From positions 1-19,461 of the IMG/VR virus record IMGVR_UViG_2671180427_000015: 19,461 bases of DNA; one strand, written 5' to 3'. The position numbers were made by a program, and so were the translations under genes. The DNA comes from a virus (lineage: Duplodnaviria > Heunggongvirae > Uroviricota > Caudoviricetes). Below the pieces are notes generated by a model. The model did not search any database. It was not told where the DNA came from and saw only the letters and a list, made by a program, of their open reading frames with translations. Positions 7,571 through 19,461 of the stretch are shown in pieces. How positions within the stretch are numbered: position 1 is the stretch's first letter; every line of letters begins with the position of its first letter.

Positions 7571-7639
7571 TACAATATGTACTCACCAAACACAAGTAAA
7601 AATACATATTGTGCATGGATGGTTCCAGTACAGAGCGTA
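7571..7639. promoter_or_regulatory. Right operator/promoter region (candidate OR sites with divergent pR and pRM)
   Basis: Three related 11-bp elements of form TAC-N5-GT(A/G): TACAATATGTA (7571..7581), TACATATTGTG (7603..7613), TACAGAGCGTA (7629..7639), lying between divergent cro and cI starts. Confidence 0.5.
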
Positions 7640-7656
7640 ATAATAAGGATATGAAA

Positions 7657-8310
7657 ATGAAATGGTATGAACTGGCTAGATCCAGAATGAAAGAGCTCGG
7701 CATAACTCAAGAGAAGTTAGCCGAAGAGCTAGGTATGACGCAGGGTGGAATTGGACACTGGTTGCGCGGATCTCGTCATCCATCTCTTAGTGATATTGGT
7801 GTGGTGTTTAAATACCTTGGTATTGATAACATATCATTCAACCACGACGGGACATTTTCACCTGTTGGCGAATACTCATCGGCCCCAGTTAAAAAACAAT
7901 ATGAGTACCCTGTTTTTTCTCATGTTCAGGCTGGGATGTTCTCTCCAGAACTCAGAACCTTTACCAAAGGCGATGCGGAGAGATTGGTAGGCACAACCAA
8001 AAAAGCCAGTGACTCTGCATTCTGGCTTGAGGTTGAAGGTAACTCAATGACCGCACCAACAGGTTCCAAACCTAGTTTTCCTGACGGGATGTTAATTCTG
8101 GTTGACCCTGAGCAAGCTGTTGAGCCCGGCGATTTCTGCATAGCCAGACTTGGTGGTGATGAATTTACCTTCAAGAAACTGATCAGGGATAGCGGTCAGG
8201 TGTTTCTACAGCCACTAAACCCACAATACCCAATGATCCCATGCAATGAGAGTTGTTCCGTTGTTGGGAAAGTTATCGCTAGTCAGTGGCCTGAAGAGAC
8301 GTTTGGGTGA
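7657..8310 (+). CDS. cI: CI prophage repressor, mosaic: non-lambda N-terminal HTH domain fused to lambda-type S24 (LexA-like) C-terminal domain
   Basis: C-terminal ~130 aa ([19 protein letters not shown]...EVEGNSM...FKKL...[12 protein letters not shown]) matches recalled lambda CI; N-terminal ~85 aa is unrelated to lambda CI. Start placed at ATG 7657 (AAGGA 7 nt upstream); the track ORF starts at 7609. Confidence 0.85.
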
Positions 8311-8380: not shown

Positions 8381-9379
8381 TTGGAAATCAGCACGGCGGT
8401 TATTCATTCCGAAGAAGATGCTTTGCGTTTTGTTGAGATGTACATCGCTGGGCAAGATCTTCCTGATGGAATATCATTTGAAGGGTGGCCTAACTTAACC
8501 TTCCGTCTTACTGGTGACAAATTTCATGGCAGTTTGACTCCTTCTGTCATGAAGGGTTTTGTTGAAATGCAGGCCCAAATAAACCGAGCTTATGCATTGT
8601 TAAAGTACGGAGTTCCTGACCCAAGAAAGCTTTCAAAAGAAGAGAAGGAAGCTATCGAAATTCAGGTGAATGTTGAGAATGGCTCGTCCTTGATAGAAGT
8701 TAATATGGATGGGTTCATGGGTGAGGTTATACAAACTGCGGTGAGTAAAGTGGGCCCTCAAGAGATCGTTATTACAGTTTTAGGGGTCGCTCTTATATGG
8801 GGCGGCGTCGTCCTATTCAAAAAATACCTAGAAGACCGCAAAGAGATTCGCATGGCAGAAGTAAAAAGCGAGTCTGAGCGTGAACACCTTGCGACCATGC
8901 GCTTCATGTCTGAGCAGGAAACAAAACGAAGTGAATTATTGACTCAGATTATTAGCGAAAAACCCAAGCTAGACAACATGGAAAGACTTGCTCATGACGC
9001 AAAAACCGACATAGTTAAATCATTTGTCAAGGCTGATACAGCTCAGATTGATGGCGTTGTATTGGATGCAGATCTATCCAAAACCCTCACTACAAATGCA
9101 AGGCGGAAATCAATGGAGATCCGCCTTGATGGAAATTATCGCATTGAAAAGGTTGACTCCACTGATCCAGAGAGCTTCAAAGTGCAAGTGAGAAATGTTG
9201 ATTCCGATCTAAGAATATCGTGCATAGTACAAGATGTTTTTCTCGACGCATCCGAGCATAAAAAAGCTCTTCAGCAAGCTGAGTGGGATAGAAAACCAGT
9301 TCATTTGTCAATCAACGCAAAAGAACTAGATGGTGAAATAAAGTCCGCGATAATACTTTATGTCAAAGAGATAACATAA
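8381..9379 (+). CDS. Immunity-region cargo protein of unknown function with one central hydrophobic helix (in the position lambda uses for rexA-rexB)
   Basis: 332-aa ORF with TTG start 7 nt after AGAGG; AT-rich; 70 nt downstream of cI on the same strand and followed by an intrinsic terminator; hydrophobic segment IVITVLGVALIWGGVVLF mid-protein; no similarity to RexA/RexB that I can recognise. Confidence 0.6.
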   Translation: MEISTAVIHSEEDALRFVEMYIAGQDLPDGISFEGWPNLTFRLTGDKFHGSLTPSVMKGFVEMQAQINRAYALLKYGVPDPRKLSKEEKEAIEIQVNVENGSSLIEVNMDGFMGEVIQTAVSKVGPQEIVITVLGVALIWGGVVLFKKYLEDRKEIRMAEVKSESEREHLATMRFMSEQETKRSELLTQIISEKPKLDNMERLAHDAKTDIVKSFVKADTAQIDGVVLDADLSKTLTTNARRKSMEIRLDGNYRIEKVDSTDPESFKVQVRNVDSDLRISCIVQDVFLDASEHKKALQQAEWDRKPVHLSINAKELDGEIKSAIILYVKEIT

Positions 9380-9601: not shown

Positions 9602-9630
9602 TTGATAAAGCAAAATACATATCGTACTAT
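9602..9630 (+). promoter_or_regulatory. pL-like promoter with overlapping operator
   Basis: TTGATA -17 nt- TACTAT; the element TACATATCGTA (9616..9626) matches the OR-type TAC-N5-GTA sites and overlaps the spacer/-10. Confidence 0.45.
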
Positions 9631-9722: not shown

Positions 9723-9819
9723 GATCACCCAACCACATGAGCTGTGGGATGCAATGCCGAAGCAACCGTCTAGGAGTAGCTTCGAGATTGCATCGCCAAA
9801 GTTTATTCGGGAGGAATCT

Positions 9820-10092
9820 ATGTCCAGAAAAACAGAATTTAAAGGCACCGCAGCTTCTCGCCGTAGAGCTCGTCGCGCAAATCTGCAAAGTCAGGAGGCG
9901 ATTAGCTCCGACAAACTACACAGGCCAACCCCCTCACGAGTGGTCTTGCAATGCAAACGCAAACCAGCAATGAGAGCAGAAGTAATAACACTGACAACGT
10001 TGACCAGAAAATATGAAGGCTCAACTTGTCTTCCAAATGTAGCTCTTTACGCGGCAGGCTACAGGAAATCAAAACAACTGACAGCAAGGTGA
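9820..10092 (+). CDS. N: N-like transcription antiterminator (arginine-rich motif; not lambda N)
   Basis: 90 aa from ATG 9820 (GGGAGG upstream); N-terminal arginine-rich motif GTAASRRRARRANLQ; first gene after pL/nutL. C-terminus resembles what I recall of the P22 gene 24 product, but that recollection is unverified. Confidence 0.7.
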   Translation: MSRKTEFKGTAASRRRARRANLQSQEAISSDKLHRPTPSRVVLQCKRKPAMRAEVITLTTLTRKYEGSTCLPNVALYAAGYRKSKQLTAR

Positions 10093-10237: not shown

Positions 10238-10445
10238 TAAAAATCAATGGTGTGGACAATTCAAGCGATGCAATGGATGCAAGCTGCAATCGGAATGCAT
10301 GGTTAAGCCTGAAGAAATGTTTCCTGTAATGGAAGATGGGAAATATGTCGATAAATGGGCAATACGAACGACGGCAATGATTGCCAGAGAACTTGGTAAA
10401 CAGAACAACAAGGCTGCCTGGTGGTGGCCTTTATTTTTGGCATAA
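10221..10445 (+). CDS. ral: Ral restriction-alleviation protein
   Basis: First 66 aa match recalled lambda Ral (MTTTIDKNQWCGQFKRCNGCKLQSECM...); this ORF reads on for 8 more codons (WWWPLFLA) before the stop. Confidence 0.8.
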   Translation: MTTTIDKNQWCGQFKRCNGCKLQSECMVKPEEMFPVMEDGKYVDKWAIRTTAMIARELGKQNNKAAWWWPLFLA

Positions 10446-10603
10446 ACAACAGAATAAACACTGCACTGTGTATTCATTCCAACAAGTGAATACACGGAGC
10501 AATGTCGCTCGTAACCAAACAGGAGCCGACTTGTTCTGATTATTGGAAATCTTCTTTGCCCTCCAATATGAGGGCGATTTTTTATCTGTGAGGATATGAA
10601 CAG

Positions 10604-10972
10604 ATGTCAAACATCAAAAAATACATCATTGATTACGACTGGAAAGCATCAATAGAAATTGAAATCGACCATGACGTAATGACAGAGGAAAAACTTCACC
10701 AGATTAATAATTTCTGGTCAGACTCTGAATACCGACTCAATAAACACGGCTCTGTATTAAATGCTGTATTAATCATGCTGGCGCAACATGCTCTGCTTAT
10801 AGCAATTTCAAGCGACTTAAATGCATATGGTGTTGTGTGTGAGTTCGACTGGAATGATGGAAATGGTCAGGAAGGATGGCCTCCAATGGATGGTAGTGAA
10901 GGAATAAGAATTACCGATATCGATACATCAGAAATATTTGATTCAGATGATATGACTATCAAGGCCGCCTGA
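10604..10972 (+). CDS. ea10: Ea10 (Ssb)-like early protein
   Basis: 122-aa translation matches recalled lambda Ea10 in size, position (between ral and cIII) and sequence. Confidence 0.7.
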   Translation: MSNIKKYIIDYDWKASIEIEIDHDVMTEEKLHQINNFWSDSEYRLNKHGSVLNAVLIMLAQHALLIAISSDLNAYGVVCEFDWNDGNGQEGWPPMDGSEGIRITDIDTSEIFDSDDMTIKAA

Positions 10973-11044
10973 GCGCGGCGTTACCGCATACCAATTACGC
11001 TTCACTCGAGGCGTTTTTCGTTATGTATAAATAAGGAGCACACC

Positions 11045-11209
11045 ATGCAATATGCCATTGCAGGGTGGCCTGTTGCTGGCTGCCCTTCCGAATCTTTACT
11101 TGAACGAATCACCCGTAAATTACGTGACGGATGGAAACGCCTTATCGACATACTTAATCAGCCAGGAGTCCCAAAAAATGGATCAAACAATTATGGCTAT
11201 CCAGACTAA
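11045..11209 (+). CDS. cIII: CIII (FtsH/HflB protease inhibitor)
   Basis: 54-aa translation [54 protein letters not shown] with AAGGAG Shine-Dalgarno; not in the ORF track (<60 aa). Confidence 0.85.
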   Translation: MQYAIAGWPVAGCPSESLLERITRKLRDGWKRLIDILNQPGVPKNGSNNYGYPD

Positions 11210-11321
11210 ATTCACTATCGCCACTTTTATTGGCGATGAAAAGATGTTTCGTGAGGCCGTCGACGCTTATAAAAAATGGATATTAATACTGAAACTGAGA
11301 TCAAGCAAAAGCATTCACTAA
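11178..11321 (+). CDS. kil: Kil (host cell-division inhibitor)
   Basis: 47-aa translation [47 protein letters not shown], the in-frame 3' part of the 89-aa track ORF; overlaps the cIII 3' end as in lambda. Confidence 0.8.
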
Positions 11322-11396
11322 CCCCCTTTCCTGTTTTCCTAATCAGCCTGGCATTTCGCGGGCGATATTTTCACAGCCATTTTCAGGAGTTCAGCC

Positions 11397-11693
11397 ATGA
11401 ACGCTTATTACATTCAGGATCGTCTTGAGGCTCAGAGCTGGGCGCGTCACTACCAGCAGATCGCCCGTGAAGAGAAAGAGGCAGAACTGGCAGACGACAT
11501 GGAAAAAGGCCTGCCCCAGCACCTGTTTGAATCGCTATGCATCGATCATTTACAACGCCACGGGGCCAGCAAAAAAGCCATTACCCGTGCGTTTGATGAC
11601 GATGTTGAGTTTCAGGAGCGCATGGCAGAACACATCCGGTACATAGTTGAAACCATTGCTCACCATCAGGCTGATATTGATTCAGAGGTATAA
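11397..11693 (+). CDS. gam: Gam (RecBCD inhibitor)
   Basis: 98-aa translation matches recalled lambda GamS; CAGGAG Shine-Dalgarno. Confidence 0.9.
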
Positions 11694-11698
11694 AACGG

Positions 11699-12484
11699 AT
11701 GAGTACAGCACTCGCAACGCTGGCAGGGAAGCTGGCTGAACGTGTCGGCATGGATTCTGTCGACCCACAGGAACTGATCACCACTCTTCGCCAGACGGCA
11801 TTTAAAGGTGATGCCAGCGATGCGCAGTTCATCGCATTGCTGATCGTCGCCAACCAGTACGGCCTTAATCCGTGGACGAAAGAAATTTACGCCTTCCCTG
11901 ATAAGCAGAACGGCATTGTTCCGGTGGTGGGCGTTGATGGCTGGTCCCGCATCATCAATGAAAACCAGCAGTTTGATGGCATGGACTTTGAGCAGGACAA
12001 TGAATCCTGTACATGCCGGATTTACCGCAAGGACCGCAATCATCCGATCTGCGTTACCGAGTGGATGGATGAATGCCGCCGCGAACCATTCAAAACCCGC
12101 GAAAGCAGAGAAATCACGGGGCCGTGGCAGTCGCATCCCAAACGGATGTTACGGCATAAAGCCATGATTCAGTGTGCCCGTCTCGCCTTCGGATTTGCTG
12201 GTATCTATGACAAGGATGAAGCCGAGCGCATTGTCGAAAATACCGCATACACTGCAGAACGTCAGCCGGAACGCGACATCACTCCGGTTAACGATGAAAC
12301 CATGCAGGAGATTAACACTCTGCTGATTGCCCTGGATAAAACATGGGATGACGACTTATTGCCGCTCTGTTCCCAGATATTTCGCCGCGACATTCGCGCA
12401 TCGTCAGAACTGACACAGGCCGAAGCAGTGAAAGCTCTTGGATTCCTGAAACAGAAAGCCACTGAGCAGAAGGTGGCTGCATGA
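11699..12484 (+). CDS. bet: Bet (Red-beta single-strand annealing protein)
   Basis: 261-aa translation matches recalled lambda Bet throughout. Confidence 0.95.
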
Positions 12485-13161
12485 CACCGGACATTATCCT
12501 GCAGCGTACCGGAATCGACGTGAGAGCTGTCGAACAGGGGGATGATGCGTGGCACAAATTACGGCTCGGCGTCATCACCGCTTCAGAAGTTCACAATGTG
12601 ATAGCAAAGCCCCGCTCAGGAAAGAAGTGGCCTGACATGAAAATGTCCTACTTCCACACCCTGCTGGCTGAGGTTTGCACCGGTGTGGCTCCGGAAGTTA
12701 ATGCTAAGGCGCTGGCCTGGGGAAAACAGTACGAGAACGACGCCAGAGCCCTGTTTGAGTTCACTTCCGGCGTGAATGTTACTGAATCCCCGATCATCTA
12801 TCGCGACGAAAGTATGCGCACCGCCTGCTCTCCCGATGGTTTATGCAGTGACGGCAACGGCCTTGAACTGAAATGCCCGTTTACCTCCCGGGATTTCATG
12901 AAATTCCGGCTCGGTGGTTTCGAGGCCATAAAGTCGGCTTACATGGCCCAGGTGCAGTACAGCATGTGGGTAACGCGAAAAGATGCCTGGTACTTTGCCA
13001 ACTATGACCCACGAATGAAGCGTGAAGGCCTGCATTATGTCGTGGTTGAGCGGGATGAAAATTACATGGCGAGTTTTGACGAGATGGTGCCGGAGTTCAT
13101 CGAAAAAATGGACGAGGCACTGGCTGAAATTGGTTTTGCATTTGGGGAGCAATGGCGATGA
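12481..13161 (+). CDS. exo: Exo (Red-alpha 5'-3' exonuclease)
   Basis: 226-aa translation matches recalled lambda Exo; 4-nt overlap with bet. Confidence 0.95.
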
Positions 13162-13340
13162 AGCATCCTCACGATAATATCCGGGTAGGCACGATCACTT
13201 TCGTCTACTCCGTTACAAAGCGAGGCTGGGTATTTCCCGGCCTTTCTGTTATCCGAAATCCCCTGAAAGCACAGCGGCTGGCTGAGGAGATAAATAATAA
13301 ACGAGGGGCTGTATGCACAAAGCATCTCCTGTTGAGTTAA
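13158..13340 (+). CDS. orf60a: orf60a-like protein
   Basis: 60 aa from the second in-frame ATG (ATGA overlap with exo stop); matches recalled lambda orf60a. Confidence 0.6.
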
Positions 13341-13504
13341 GAACGAGCATTGAGATGGCACATAGCCTTGCTCAAATTGGAGTCAGGTTTGTGCCAATAC
13401 CAGTAGAAACAGACGAAGAATTTCATACGTTAGCCACATCCCTTTCACAAAAGCTGGAAATGATGGTGGCGAAAGCAGAAGCAGATGAGAGAGACCAGGT
13501 ATGA
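13313..13504 (+). CDS. orf63: orf63-like protein
   Basis: 63-aa ORF in the lambda orf63 position; sequence consistent with recollection. Confidence 0.6.
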   Translation: MHKASPVELRTSIEMAHSLAQIGVRFVPIPVETDEEFHTLATSLSQKLEMMVAKAEADERDQV

Positions 13505-13580
13505 CAACCACGGAATGCATTTTTCTGGCAGCGGGCTTCATATTCTGTGTGCTTATGCTTGCCGACATGGGACTTGTTCA

Positions 13581-13796
13581 ATGACACCTCAGCAGGAAAA
13601 CGCCCTTCGCAGCATTGCCCGTCAGGCTAATTCTGAAATCAAAAAAGCCAGACAGCAGTTTCCGGATAAAAACGTCGATGACATTTGCCGTAGCGTACTG
13701 AAGAAGCACCGCGAAACGGTAACGCTGATGGGATTCACACCGACTCATTTAAGCCTGGCAATCGGCATGTTAAACGGCGTCTTTAAGGAACGATGA
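13581..13796 (+). CDS. orf61: orf61-like protein
   Basis: 71 aa from MTPQQENALRSIARQANSEIKKARQQF...; placed at the internal ATG, which overlaps (ATGA) the stop of a 27-codon upstream ORF. Confidence 0.55.
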   Translation: MTPQQENALRSIARQANSEIKKARQQFPDKNVDDICRSVLKKHRETVTLMGFTPTHLSLAIGMLNGVFKER

Positions 13797-13817
13797 ACAT
13801 GAAAAGCAAAATCATCA

Positions 13818-13842
13818 GGGAGCTACAGGCTCCTTTTTTATT
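13818..13842 (+). terminator. Intrinsic terminator (tL-type) after orf61-like
   Basis: GGGAGC-TACAG-GCTCC(U) hairpin followed by TTTTTTATT. Confidence 0.55.
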
Positions 13843-13894
13843 ATTCGCATTCACCCTCAAGCGTATTAACCAACAATTCAGGGATTAATGGAAG

Positions 13895-14116
13895 ATGGCA
13901 GACATCATTGATTCAGCATCAGAAATTGAAGAATTACAGCGCAACACAGCAATAAAAATGCGCCGCCTGAACCACCAGGCTATATCTGCCACTCATTGTT
14001 GTGAGTGTGGCGATCCGATAGATGAACGAAGACGCCTGGTCGTTCAGGGTTGTCGGACTTGTGCAAGTTGCCAGGAGGATCTGGAGCTTATCAGTAAACA
14101 GAGAGGTTCGAAGTGA
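13895..14116 (+). CDS. TraR/DksA-family C4 zinc-finger protein
   Basis: 73 aa with two CxxC pairs (CCECG...CRTCASC) in the spacing typical of the TraR/DksA zinc finger. Confidence 0.65.
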   Translation: MADIIDSASEIEELQRNTAIKMRRLNHQAISATHCCECGDPIDERRRLVVQGCRTCASCQEDLELISKQRGSK

Positions 14117-14520
14117 GCGAAATTAACTCTCAGGCACTGCGTGAAGCGGCAGAGAAAGCCGGTGAAGATAAGTGGCAGGCTAAAAAAATAAATGGTGATT
14201 TTTTCGTTATTCGTCACGGTAGTTATACAAGACAGCATGGCTACACATCGTATCAACCCATTGCGGAGATTGATTGTAAGCCAGTCCGGGATTTTGTTGC
14301 CAAGGCTAATCCGGCTACCGTGCTGGAATTACTGGATGAACTGGAAGCAGCAAAAAAGCGCATTGCAGAACTGGAAGCGCGGGAAATACTGCTCCCGGAA
14401 CGTAGCAGCATGCTTCATCGAACAGATTTTCACGATGATTACCAAACGGTAATGGCATACAAAGTTTCTGAAGTCATCGATGCAATCCGCGCTACTGGCA
14501 TTCGCATCAAAGGAGAGTGA
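14113..14520 (+). CDS. Ea22-like protein (shorter than lambda Ea22)
   Basis: GTG start in a GTGA overlap with the upstream stop, GAGAGG Shine-Dalgarno; N-terminus MSEINSQALREAAEKA... and C-terminus ...GIRIKGE agree with recalled lambda Ea22 termini; central coiled-coil-like LELLDELEAAKKRIAELEARE. Confidence 0.6.
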   Translation: MSEINSQALREAAEKAGEDKWQAKKINGDFFVIRHGSYTRQHGYTSYQPIAEIDCKPVRDFVAKANPATVLELLDELEAAKKRIAELEAREILLPERSSMLHRTDFHDDYQTVMAYKVSEVIDAIRATGIRIKGE

Positions 14521-15287: not shown

Positions 15288-16085
15288 ATGACCACTATTA
15301 CCAAAGAACGTATTGAATTGTTCATTAAAAATCCGCTTGAAAACGGGCTTACTCGTGGCGAACAAATGGAACTGGCACGAATTGCACTGGCATCACTGGA
15401 ACGCGAACTGATTCGCCACGAGCATGCCAAATGGTCTGACTCCACATTTGGCTGCGTTGGCCCCATTGGTCCACTGAAACACCTCTCAAAAGAGGCTCTG
15501 GAAGCCGCAGCCGAACCAGACGATCTCAGCTAGTGGGCTGATATGCATTTCCTGTTGTGGGATGCACAGCGCCGTGCTGGCATCAGCGATGCTGAAATTA
15601 CCGCTGCTATGGAAGATAAATTGAAGATCAACATGGAGCGCCAGTGGCCTGAACCAAAAGATGGTGAGCCTCGCTTGCACATTAAAGAACCCGGCAACTC
15701 TCCGGTAATTCCGGATGGTTTATCCACGGTATGCGCTGAGGCTTATCAGGTTGTAGGAGTTATGGCAGATGCGCTTGGTGTATTCGGTGATGCAGCAGTA
15801 CAGAAAGTTCTGGATAACCTGTCACAGCAAAAACTTGTTCACAGAGATGTGCTGCCGTTCTCGCTTCCGGTGACTCCGGATGGTTGGATAAGCTGTAGTG
15901 AGCGAATGCCGAAAGAAACGGGTGACATTATTGTTGTTTCGGATGGCATTGTAATGTCCGGGATTTCTTATTCTCGTCGTGACGGGTTCTATATAGCCGC
16001 ATTGGAGTACGACGACGATGAGCCAATTGGCGGTGTAACCCACTGGATGCCTCTACCAGAACCGCCTCGATTAAAGGAGCTATAA
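15288..16085 (+). pseudogene. MazG-like NTP pyrophosphohydrolase / DUF551 reading frame interrupted by an in-frame amber codon (TAG 15531..15533)
   Basis: Track ORFs 15288..15533 and 15543..16085 are in the same frame, separated by TAG plus three sense codons; a MazG-like helix pattern (...EALEAAAEPDDLS * WADMHFLLWDAQRRAGISDAEITAAMEDKLKINMERQW) spans the stop; C-terminal ...HWMPLPEPP is DUF551-like. No convincing Shine-Dalgarno before the downstream ATG. Confidence 0.5.
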
Positions 16086-16776: not shown

Positions 16777-16995
16777 ATGTACTTGACACTTCAGGAGTGG
16801 AACGCTCGCCAGCGACGCCCAAGAAGCCTTGAAACAGTTCGTCGATGGGTGCGCGAATGCAGGATATTCCCTCCTCCGGTTAAGGATGGAAGAGAATATC
16901 TGTTCCACGAATCAGCGGTAAAGGTTGACTTAAATCGACCAGTAACAGGTAGCCTTTTGAAGAGGATCAGAAATGGGAAGAAGGCGAAGTCATGA
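16777..16995 (+). CDS. xis: Excisionase Xis
   Basis: 72-aa translation matches recalled lambda Xis; overlaps the int start. Confidence 0.95.
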   Translation: MYLTLQEWNARQRRPRSLETVRRWVRECRIFPPPVKDGREYLFHESAVKVDLNRPVTGSLLKRIRNGKKAKS

Positions 16996-18043
16996 GCGCC
17001 GGGATTTACCCCCTAACCTTTATATAAGAAACAATGGATATTACTGCTACAGGGACCCAAGGACGGGTAAAGAGTTTGGATTAGGCAGAGACAGGCGAAT
17101 CGCAATCACTGAAGCTATACAGGCCAACATTGAGTTATTTTCAGGACACAAACACAAGCCTCTGACAGCGAGAATCAACAGTGATAATTCCGTTACGTTA
17201 CATTCATGGCTTGATCGCTACGAAAAAATCCTGGCCAGCAGAGGAATCAAGCAGAAGACACTCATAAATTACATGAGCAAAATTAAAGCAATAAGGAGGG
17301 GTCTGCCTGATGCTCCACTTGAAGACATCACCACAAAAGAAATTGCGGCAATGCTCAATGGATACATAGACGAGGGCAAGGCGGCGTCAGCCAAGTTAAT
17401 CAGATCAACACTGAGCGATGCATTCCGAGAGGCAATAGCTGAAGGCCATATAACAACAAACCCTGTCGCTGCCACTCGCGCAGCAAAATCAGAGGTAAGG
17501 AGATCAAGACTTACGGCTGACGAATACCTGAAAATTTATCAAGCAGCAGAATCATCACCATGTTGGCTCAGACTTGCAATGGAACTGGCTGTTGTTACCG
17601 GGCAACGAGTTGGTGATTTATGCGAAATGAAGTGGTCTGATATCGTAGATGGATATCTTTATGTCGAGCAAAGCAAAACAGGCGTAAAAATTGCCATCCC
17701 AACAACATTGCATGTTGATGCTCTCGGGATATCAATGAAGGAAACACTTGATAAATGCAAAGAGATTCTTGGCGGAGAAACCATAATTGCATCTACTCGT
17801 CGTGAACCGCTTTCATCCGGCACAGTATCAAGGTATTTTATGCGCGCACGAAAAGCATCAGGTCTTTCCTTCGAAGGGGATCCGCCTACCTTTCACGAGT
17901 TGCGCAGTTTGTCTGCAAGACTCTATGAGAAGCAGATAAGCGATAAGTTTGCTCAACATCTTCTCGGGCATAAGTCGGACACCATGGCATCACAGTATCG
18001 TGATGACAGAGGCAGGGAGTGGGACAAAATTGAAATCAAATAA
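16973..18043 (+). CDS. int: Tyrosine integrase Int
   Basis: 356-aa translation matches recalled lambda Int, including the C-terminal catalytic region ...HELRSLSARLYEKQISDKFAQHLLGHKSDTMASQYRDDRG... Confidence 0.95.
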   Translation: MGRRRSHERRDLPPNLYIRNNGYYCYRDPRTGKEFGLGRDRRIAITEAIQANIELFSGHKHKPLTARINSDNSVTLHSWLDRYEKILASRGIKQKTLINYMSKIKAIRRGLPDAPLEDITTKEIAAMLNGYIDEGKAASAKLIRSTLSDAFREAIAEGHITTNPVAATRAAKSEVRRSRLTADEYLKIYQAAESSPCWLRLAMELAVVTGQRVGDLCEMKWSDIVDGYLYVEQSKTGVKIAIPTTLHVDALGISMKETLDKCKEILGGETIIASTRREPLSSGTVSRYFMRARKASGLSFEGDPPTFHELRSLSARLYEKQISDKFAQHLLGHKSDTMASQYRDDRGREWDKIEIK

Positions 18044-18177: not shown

Positions 18178-19461
18178 GTGAACACATTTTCAGTTTCCCG
18201 TCTGGCGCTGGCATTGGCTTTTGGCGTGACGCTGACCGCCTGTAGCTCAACACCACCCGATCAACGTCCTTCTGATCAAACCGCGCCTGGTACCTCTTCT
18301 CGCCCGATTCTGTCGGCAAAAGAAGCGCAGAATTTCGATGCTCAACACTATTTTGCATCCCTGACACCAGGTGCTGCAGCGTGGAATCCTTCCCCGATTA
18401 CCCTGCCTGCGCAACCTGACTTTGTTGTCGGCCCGGCGGGTACTCAAGGTGTAACGCATACCACGATTCAGGCGGCGGTAGATGCGGCAATTATCAAGCG
18501 TACCAACAAGCGCCAGTATATTGCCGTGATGCCAGGTGAGTATCAGGGAACGGTATATGTTCCTGCCGCTCCGGGTGGAATTACTCTGTACGGTACAGGT
18601 GAAAAACCGATTGATGTGAAGATTGGGCTTTCCCTTGATGGGGGCATGAGCCCTGCCGACTGGCGTCACGACGTCAACCCGCGCGGCAAATATATGCCAG
18701 GTAAACCAGCGTGGTATATGTACGATAGCTGCCAGAGCAAACGCAGCAACAGTATCGGTGTTCTCTGTTCAGCGGTCTTCTGGTCACAAAACAATGGCCT
18801 GCAACTGCAAAACCTGACCATCGAAAACACGCTGGGCGATAGCGTAGATGCGGGTAACCATCCGGCGGTGGCACTGCGTACTGATGGTGACCAGGTACAG
18901 ATTAACAACGTGAACATTCTCGGTCGTCAGAACACCTTCTTTGTCACCAACAGCGGTGTGCAGAACCGTCTGGAAACGAATCGTCAGCCGCGTACGCTGG
19001 TGACCAACAGCTACATTGAAGGGGATGTGGATATCGTTTCTGGTCGCGGCGCAGTGGTGTTCGATAACACCGAATTCCGCGTGGTGAACTCACGTACTCA
19101 GCAAGAAGCGTATGTGTTTGCACCGGCAACGCTGTCCAACATTTACTACGGTTTCCTCGCTGTAAACAGCCGTTTCAATGCTTCCGGTGATGGCGTGGCG
19201 CAACTGGGCCGCTCGCTGGATGTTGATGCCAATACCAACGGTCAGGTGGTGATCCGTGATAGCGCCATCAACGAAGGTTTTAACACGGCTAAACCGTGGG
19301 CCGATGCGGTGATCTCTAATCGTCCGTTTGCGGGTAATACCGGCAGCGTAGATGATAACGACGAAATACAGCGCAATCTGAATGACACTAACTACAACCG
19401 CATGTGGGAATACAATAACCGCGGCGTGGGTAGTAAAGTGGTTGCAGAGGCGAAGAAGTAA
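18178..19461 (+). CDS. ybhC: Host lipoprotein YbhC (pectinesterase-family outer-membrane lipoprotein) flanking attB-lambda
   Basis: 427-aa ORF with GTG start, signal peptide and lipobox (LTAC); matches recalled E. coli YbhC, the gene adjacent to the lambda attachment site; higher GC than the prophage cargo. Confidence 0.85.
   Translation: MNTFSVSRLALALAFGVTLTACSSTPPDQRPSDQTAPGTSSRPILSAKEAQNFDAQHYFASLTPGAAAWNPSPITLPAQPDFVVGPAGTQGVTHTTIQAAVDAAIIKRTNKRQYIAVMPGEYQGTVYVPAAPGGITLYGTGEKPIDVKIGLSLDGGMSPADWRHDVNPRGKYMPGKPAWYMYDSCQSKRSNSIGVLCSAVFWSQNNGLQLQNLTIENTLGDSVDAGNHPAVALRTDGDQVQINNVNILGRQNTFFVTNSGVQNRLETNRQPRTLVTNSYIEGDVDIVSGRGAVVFDNTEFRVVNSRTQQEAYVFAPATLSNIYYGFLAVNSRFNASGDGVAQLGRSLDVDANTNGQVVIRDSAINEGFNTAKPWADAVISNRPFAGNTGSVDDNDEIQRNLNDTNYNRMWEYNNRGVGSKVVAEAKK

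Follow-up and report, generated by a model that had tools for sequence, protein, structure and literature searches.

A lambdoid prophage sequence carries, in its early-left operon and just upstream of an Ea22-like gene, an open reading frame for a 73-residue C4 zinc-finger protein. A sequence-only reading assigned this protein to the TraR/DksA type, held that lambda itself has no such gene at this place, and suggested that the phage may use it to bind the secondary channel of RNA polymerase (RNAP) and to reprogram host transcription, for example at rRNA promoters, during early development. The locus raises the question of whether the gene is an addition to the lambda plan or part of it, and of what its product does to the host. 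Both were addressed in the whole 19,461-nt stretch of DNA that was analysed, here called the window, whose features are collected in Table 1.

Table 1. Features of the window, by position, with the strand on which each lies and the evidence or remarks recorded for it
Feature	Position	Strand	Remarks
cII-like gene and cro-like repressor gene		-	
cI-like repressor gene	7609..8310		
ORF, 332 aa, function not assigned	8381-9379	+	phrog_6191, E 1e-137; between the cI-like and N-like genes
Promoter-like site, candidate pL	9602-9630		Consensus match; such matches are no commoner than in shuffled sequence
N-like antitermination gene	9754..10092	+	PHROG 271, E 8e-26; first gene of the early-left operon
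exo	12481..13161	+	
orf61-type gene	13485..13796	+	103 aa; upstream neighbour of orf73
ORF, 31 aa, MNMKSKIIRELQAPFLLFAFTLKRINQQFRD	13793..13888	+	Occupies the spacer between orf61 and orf73; includes the hairpin
Terminator-like hairpin	13817..13845	+	AGGGAGC-UAC-GCUCCUU with T-rich tail; consensus scan
Probable Shine-Dalgarno element, CAGGGA	13879..13884	+	10 nt upstream of the orf73 ATG; inferred from sequence
orf73 CDS	13895..14116	+	ATG to TGA, 73 aa plus TGA; TraR-family zinc-finger protein
Ea22-like gene	14113..14520	+	135 aa, GTG start; PHROG 1667/250 matches
TGT/DpdA-like ORF, 265 aa	14480-15277	+	PHROG 887 'queuine tRNA-ribosyltransferase', E 6e-102
Adjacent ORFs, 81 and 180 aa	15288-15533, 15543-16085	+	Consecutive parts of the same PHROG profiles
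ORFs in block collinear with lambda xis and int	16777..16995, 16973..18043	+	
lambda att core, reverse complement of GCTTTTTTATACTAA	18117-18131		Prophage-host junction

Identity with Lambda Orf73

The ORF list and the translation (MADIIDSASEIEELQRNTAIKMRRLNHQAISATHCCECGDPIDERRRLVVQGCRTCASCQEDLELISKQRGSK), together with the alignment of its cysteines to those of F-plasmid TraR, confirm the zinc-finger frame itself. A tblastn search with this protein against 50,697 phage records found a match in 430 of them, lambda included: lambda J02459.1 encodes at 30395-30613, on its minus strand, a protein with 100% identity across all 73 residues. Over window positions 13780-14130 the DNA is 99% identical to that of lambda, and the two differences that fall within the coding sequence are both synonymous. 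The lambda gene sits between ea22 (29847-30395) and orf61 (30839-31024), in an apparent annotation gap; we looked for an orf73 annotation in J02459 and in RefSeq NC_001416, and it is absent from both. The lambda sequence itself, which encodes an identical protein at the same position, therefore contradicts the earlier statement that the gene is lacking there, a statement that probably arose because these two records leave orf73 unannotated. The apparent novelty with respect to lambda is an artefact of annotation. In the exo-xis literature the gene bears the name orf73 and belongs to the conserved block orf60a-orf63-orf61-orf73-ea22 (PMC8614690); Orf2310 is the ribosome-profiling name of the lambda protein, and RefSeq calls the identical gene in Escherichia coli a 'TraR/DksA family transcriptional regulator'.

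The likeness to lambda extends to the surroundings of the gene. Window positions 10395-14154 are collinear with lambda at 97.8%, and matches to the orf60a, orf63, orf61 and Ea22 families flank orf73; the overlap of its stop with the start of the next gene, the upstream spacer with its hairpin, the operon, and the position between orf61 and ea22 are all the same as in lambda. The window differs from lambda in departing from it 38 nt past the orf73 stop, in having a shorter variant of the Ea22-like gene followed by a TGT/DpdA-like gene, and in carrying orf61 in a long form.

Could the frame nevertheless be a chance ORF, or a decaying pseudogene without function, as its absence from the annotation of both reference lambda records might suggest? 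Pairwise comparisons with homologs of 99%, 95%, 86% and 70% protein identity gave dN/dS values of 0.14, 0.18, 0.17 and 0.20, respectively, and the hallmark residues of the family are all conserved. Because the protein also scores above the cutoff for Pfam PF01258, matches PHROG 54 and recurs in those 430 phage records, the sequence comparisons point to a real gene under purifying selection rather than a chance ORF. Of the 5,426 complete E. coli genomes, 3,316 contain its nucleotide sequence, a single genome having as many as six copies, and the literature adds ribosome-profiling support and mutant phenotypes. The probability that the gene is functionless is negligible.

Membership in the TraR Subfamily

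A profile search, which had been proposed as the first check on the family assignment, placed the protein in the TraR/DksA family. Residues 33-64 match positions 4-35 of the 36 in Pfam PF01258 (zf-dskA_traR) with 34.8 bits (E 1.6e-8), above the gathering cutoff of 24.9 bits, and PHROG 54 ('DksA-like zinc-finger protein') is matched at E 8e-25. NCBIfam TIGR02419 ('phage/conjugal plasmid C-4 type zinc finger protein, TraR family') is covered over its full length (1-64 of 64; E 1.1e-14), with a score of 54.7 bits that lies 5 bits under the curated 59.7 cutoff, a threshold of the model rather than a biological feature. The equivalog model NF008243 (DksA/TraR family C4-type zinc finger protein) gives 37 bits against a cutoff of 96, and therefore Orf73 is not that ortholog.

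The structural databases point in the same direction. In a search of the PDB with the single sequence, the top matches are F-plasmid TraR in its RNAP complexes (5W1S and 6N57), followed by E. coli YbiI (2KGO; E 1e-4), which shares the zf-dskA_traR domain; BLASTP against F TraR gives 34% identity over 62 residues. A profile built from the diverged phage homologs matches YbiI at 4.7e-12 and residues 112-150 of DksA at 0.0057. The TraR match in that profile search is circular, because F TraR was in the alignment, so that only the YbiI and DksA matches are independent and the noncircular evidence for TraR is the single-sequence search. The length of 73 aa fits the TraR subfamily (about 70-80 aa), and the alignment of the protein with TraR, itself of 73 aa, runs over the whole of both, whereas its alignment to the 151-aa DksA is confined to the C-terminal segment already named and leaves out the coiled-coil N-terminal half. 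DksA proper, of about 150 aa, is ruled out on this count. Within the DksA/TraR superfamily the protein thus belongs to the TraR subfamily, and its gene is lambda orf73.

The residues that define this subfamily are all present. The zinc finger has the form C35-x2-C38-x17-C56-x2-C59 (CxxC-x17-CxxC), and its cysteines align residue for residue with the TraR zinc ligands C37, C40, C58 and C61; they are invariant in eight of the eight aligned sequences, which comprise seven phage homologs, with identity down to 49%, and F TraR. The N-terminal DxxDxA motif lies at residues 3-8 (D3-I-I-D6-S-A8), and R46/R47 are equivalent to TraR R48/R49. Besides the zinc cysteines, D6, A8, E44, R46 and R47 are invariant throughout the alignment, and the only substitution of D3 is a glutamate in one Klebsiella phage. 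A C-terminal helix is predicted as well, so that Orf73 resembles F TraR (5W1S, 6N57/6N58, 6PSQ-6PSV) in length, acidic motif, zinc-finger spacing, arginine pair and, by prediction, C-terminal helix.

The main departure from TraR, apart from the modest overall identity, lies in the cysteines. Six are found in the 73-aa protein, and F TraR lacks the two beyond the four zinc ligands, C36 and C53. All seven aligned phage homologs keep C53, and the diverged ones have R or S in place of C36; this pattern suggests that C53 is functionally constrained and that C36 is not. A single-sequence AlphaFold2 model places helices at residues 5-33 and 56-70 and leaves 34-55 nonhelical, a layout that fits the helix, zinc domain and helix expected of the subfamily; its mean pLDDT is 56, too low for a fold search to give matches with any meaning. 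For lambda Orf73, a published AlphaFold model has a pLDDT of 93 (PMC8614690). A six-frame scan of the window for a second TraR-like ORF of the CxxC...CxxC type led to no further one being accepted; the lone other match, at 10753-10833, works out as out of frame with ea10 and is taken to be due to chance.

Operon and Prophage Context

The plus strand of the window corresponds to the lambda leftward strand, and the genes of the operon follow one another on it in the order N-like, ral, ea10, kil, gam, bet, exo, orf60a/63/61, orf73, Ea22-like, xis and int. Since orf73 points the same way as the upstream genes from N-like through exo and as the downstream genes xis and int, it lies in the early-left operon, as had been proposed, about 3.8 kb downstream of the N-like gene. 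Beyond the att core, a flanking ORF (18178-19461) reaches the end of the window at a place where the best-matching E. coli chromosomes annotate ybhC. The att core with ybhC beyond it therefore shows that the window comes from a mosaic lambdoid prophage that sits at att-lambda, beside ybhC, and that it spans the early-left arm of this prophage. Two minus-strand ORFs, at 13885..13992 (35 aa) and 14044..14256 (70 aa, TTG start), were set aside as short and antisense to conserved genes.

The probable Shine-Dalgarno element is conserved in lambda and Stx-phage homologs. Farther upstream, about 50-60 nt from the ATG, lies the terminator-like hairpin, with a predicted RNA folding energy of -10.2 kcal/mol (z -2.9); it too is conserved in lambda and Stx phages, and phage phiSTEC1589, whose Orf73 homolog is 70% identical, has an equivalent GGAGC-loop-GCUCC-T6 hairpin upstream that differs in loop and flanks. 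In the literature covered, a search for a named lambda terminator of the exo-xis region (tL3) found none to which the hairpin could be tied. If the hairpin does terminate, orf73 would be reached mainly by N-antiterminated transcripts from pL. A scan of the plus strand near orf73 returned no promoter-like site and therefore lends no support to an orf73-specific promoter. At the other end, orf73 lies directly upstream of the Ea22-like gene, and its TGA overlaps the GTG of that gene by 4 nt (GTGA), which suggests translational coupling from one to the other.

The spacer between orf61 and orf73 holds a 31-aa ORF whose start overlaps the stop of the orf61-type gene (ATGA). Ribosome profiling in lambda is described in a review (PMC8614690) as having reported a 31-aa peptide, 'orf2313', along with orf2311; since the length is the same and the region is conserved (the spacer DNA is 99% identical to lambda), the ORF in the window is probably the equivalent of orf2313.

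Activity of the Lambda Protein

Because the proteins are identical, the published experiments on lambda Orf73 (Gopalkrishnan et al., mBio 2022, PMC9239242) apply directly to the protein of the window. Both functional checks that had been suggested from the sequence, complementation of a dksA mutant and interaction with RNAP, are already among them, with positive results. Induced Orf73 complements a dksA null on minimal medium, and the purified protein competes with labelled DksA for E. coli RNAP, with half-maximal competition at about 0.65-1 µM (PMC9239242); the competition implies that Orf73 binds the secondary-channel site of DksA. In the absence of ppGpp its IC50 at rrnB P1 is about 50 nM, equal to that of TraR; rpsT P2 is inhibited as well, and the D3N and D6N variants lose most of this inhibitory activity (PMC9239242). 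The phage homologs P2 Orf82, VP882 Orf61, VHML Orf8 and Xenorhabdus Gp34 likewise bind RNAP and inhibit rrnB P1, with IC50 values of 250-800 nM, above that of Orf73. The proposed binding to the secondary channel and reprogramming of rRNA promoters is accordingly published for the identical protein, and the gene is already known, its mechanism, its phenotypes and the proposed tests having been published in 2022.

These experiments also bear on the idea that Orf73 is a conventional DNA-binding zinc-finger transcription factor acting at specific phage or host operators. The C4 zinc finger is the sole point for such a reading. The DksA/TraR family is described in PMC9239242 as acting by binding RNAP without binding DNA; moreover, lambda Orf73 competes with DksA and works on unrelated promoters in a purified system of promoter plus RNAP (PMC9239242). 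The idea is almost certainly wrong.

Orf73 and E. coli DksA (1TJL and RNAP complexes) share the C4 zinc-finger and C-terminal region and the same site in the RNAP secondary channel. DksA, however, carries its acidic tip on a coiled coil and requires ppGpp for full activity, whereas Orf73 comprises the C-terminal half only, bears the DxxDxA motif on a single N-terminal helix and is independent of ppGpp. On the promoters that it inhibits, Orf73 works like DksA plus ppGpp. TraR, for its part, activates amino-acid, stress and F tra promoters, whereas thrABC, argI and rpoH P3 are activated weakly if at all by Orf73 (PMC9239242). Since inhibition of rRNA and ribosomal-protein promoters is strong yet activation of amino-acid and stress promoters is weak if present, Orf73 reproduces the functions of TraR, or of DksA plus ppGpp, only in part. 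The authors tentatively tie the weak activation to the two extra cysteines (PMC9239242).

A more specific form of this idea is that the Orf73 clade is a distinct, inhibition-only variant of TraR, in which Cys53 serves as an alternative zinc ligand or as a redox-sensitive switch. With C53 the finger takes the arrangement C35xxC38...C53xxC56xxC59. If this were true, Cys53 would remodel the globular domain and its contact with β' Si3, such that rRNA promoters would be repressed as well as by TraR, with barely any activation. We consider this improbable; it concerns a known protein family and is not specific to the window.

Proposed Mechanism and Physiological Role

Based on the sequence and the published biochemistry, we propose that, after infection or when the prophage is induced, orf73 is transcribed early from pL as one gene of the leftward operon under N antitermination. 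By analogy with the TraR-RNAP cryo-EM structures, from which the residue-level contacts are taken by homology, the N-terminal helix would enter the secondary channel of the host RNAP and place D3 and D6 near the active site, while the zinc-ribbon globular domain (C35/C38/C56/C59 and R46/R47) would rest on the rim helices and β' Si3, and the C-terminal helix would touch β Si1. Like F-plasmid TraR and unlike DksA, Orf73 would act without ppGpp, and it would act without binding DNA. RNAP bound in this way would form unstable open complexes at kinetically sensitive promoters, rRNA and ribosomal-protein promoters would shut down, host growth would slow, and the freed transcription capacity would go to the phage, raising the burst size several-fold. 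Both the dependence on N antitermination and the coupling to the Ea22-like gene are suggested by the arrangement of the DNA. As a whole, the reading of the gene as lambda-identical orf73, expressed from pL and encoding an RNAP secondary-channel binder that lowers rRNA and ribosomal-protein transcription and raises the burst, appears to us highly probable, and nothing that we found contradicts the molecular mechanism. Orf73 in this capacity is a small phage protein that imitates the stringent response without ppGpp and diverts host transcription from ribosome synthesis. TraR, its best match of known structure, is encoded in a conjugative transfer operon, whereas Orf73 is encoded in a phage pL operon.

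Several published phenotypes agree with this sequence of events. Orf73 is expressed from pL 5-20 min after induction, and its expression from pL slows host growth (PMC9239242). After induction with mitomycin C, lysogens with wild-type orf73 yield 3- to 4-fold more phage than those with D3A/D6A mutations or an in-frame deletion, designs that avoid polarity on ea22 (PMC9239242).

The physiological direction of Orf73 is nevertheless disputed. With the same molecule and the same RNAP target, its main role could lie in the lysis-lysogeny decision, where it would dampen host, and perhaps phage, transcription and so favor lysogeny and survival of the host. Work from the Wegrzyn laboratory, as summarized in a review (PMC8614690), found lower survival and less efficient lysogenization when orf73 was deleted from lambda and Stx phages, and the review classes orf73 and ea22 as prolysogenic; this earlier work reported a lower phage yield on infection with orf73, as PMC9239242 acknowledges. 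The lower yield of the mutant lysogens after induction speaks against this as the main role, as does the finding that the lambda lytic promoters tested are unaffected by Orf73 (PMC9239242). We think the prolysogenic role unlikely to be the chief one, with some residual weight. Both roles may hold under different routes of entry, infection on the one hand and induction on the other, and therefore this alternative concerns physiology and not mechanism.

Orf73 might also act chiefly as a 'bin' (block of initiation) factor that stops the initiation of host replication, either directly or through dnaA. Earlier work, cited in PMC9239242, implicated orf73 together with ea22, ea8.5 and orf55 in the inhibition of host replication initiation. 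However, dnaA mRNA is little affected by Orf73, and any effect on replication has been proposed to be indirect, through inhibition of rRNA transcription or changes in supercoiling (PMC9239242). The protein itself has no feature of a replication-protein binder, and each of its conserved residues falls in an element with which TraR contacts RNAP. Such a function is very improbable, and the secondary-channel mechanism is the one that we retain.

The main value of this analysis lies in correction: readers who rely on the reference lambda annotations (J02459, NC_001416), which omit this textbook-phage gene, will take orf73 for a novelty in lambdoid prophages. Most E. coli genomes have the gene, and its carriers include Shiga-toxin prophages, in which exo-xis genes influence induction.

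Neighboring Genes

The neighbor of orf73 on the upstream side, the orf61-type gene, encodes 103 aa here and 61 aa in lambda, and the sole cause is one nucleotide in a run of adenines near 13641-13646, with six in the window (A6) and seven in lambda (A7). The 103-aa form matches the 101-aa PHROG profile phrog_303, and its Stx-phage counterpart is annotated 'cell division protein ZapA'. Given this difference and these matches, the lambda orf61 appears to be an allele shortened by a frameshift; another possibility is that the long frame is reached through slippage on the A-run.

On the downstream side, homology to lambda is lost at 14154, within the 5' part of the Ea22-like gene, and a further homologous stretch runs from 16435, on the upstream side of xis, to 18131. 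The Ea22-like gene thus has about 14 initial codons in common with lambda ea22 and differs from it in the remainder, so that recombination appears to have taken place within this gene. The TGT/DpdA-like gene that follows belongs to the variable part of the exo-xis region and has no counterpart in lambda, and phage Eeyore has a gene of the same annotation directly downstream of its orf73 homolog. Genes of the TGT/DpdA type are linked to 7-deazaguanine modification of DNA. Outside the operon, the 332-aa ORF between the cI-like and N-like genes occupies the position of rexA/rexB in lambda and is a candidate moron or defence gene expressed in the lysogen. The two adjacent ORFs beyond the TGT/DpdA-like gene share phrog_28084, with profile positions 281-324 in the first and 329-380 in the second; they have the look of a single gene interrupted by a stop or frameshift, or of a recombinant junction.
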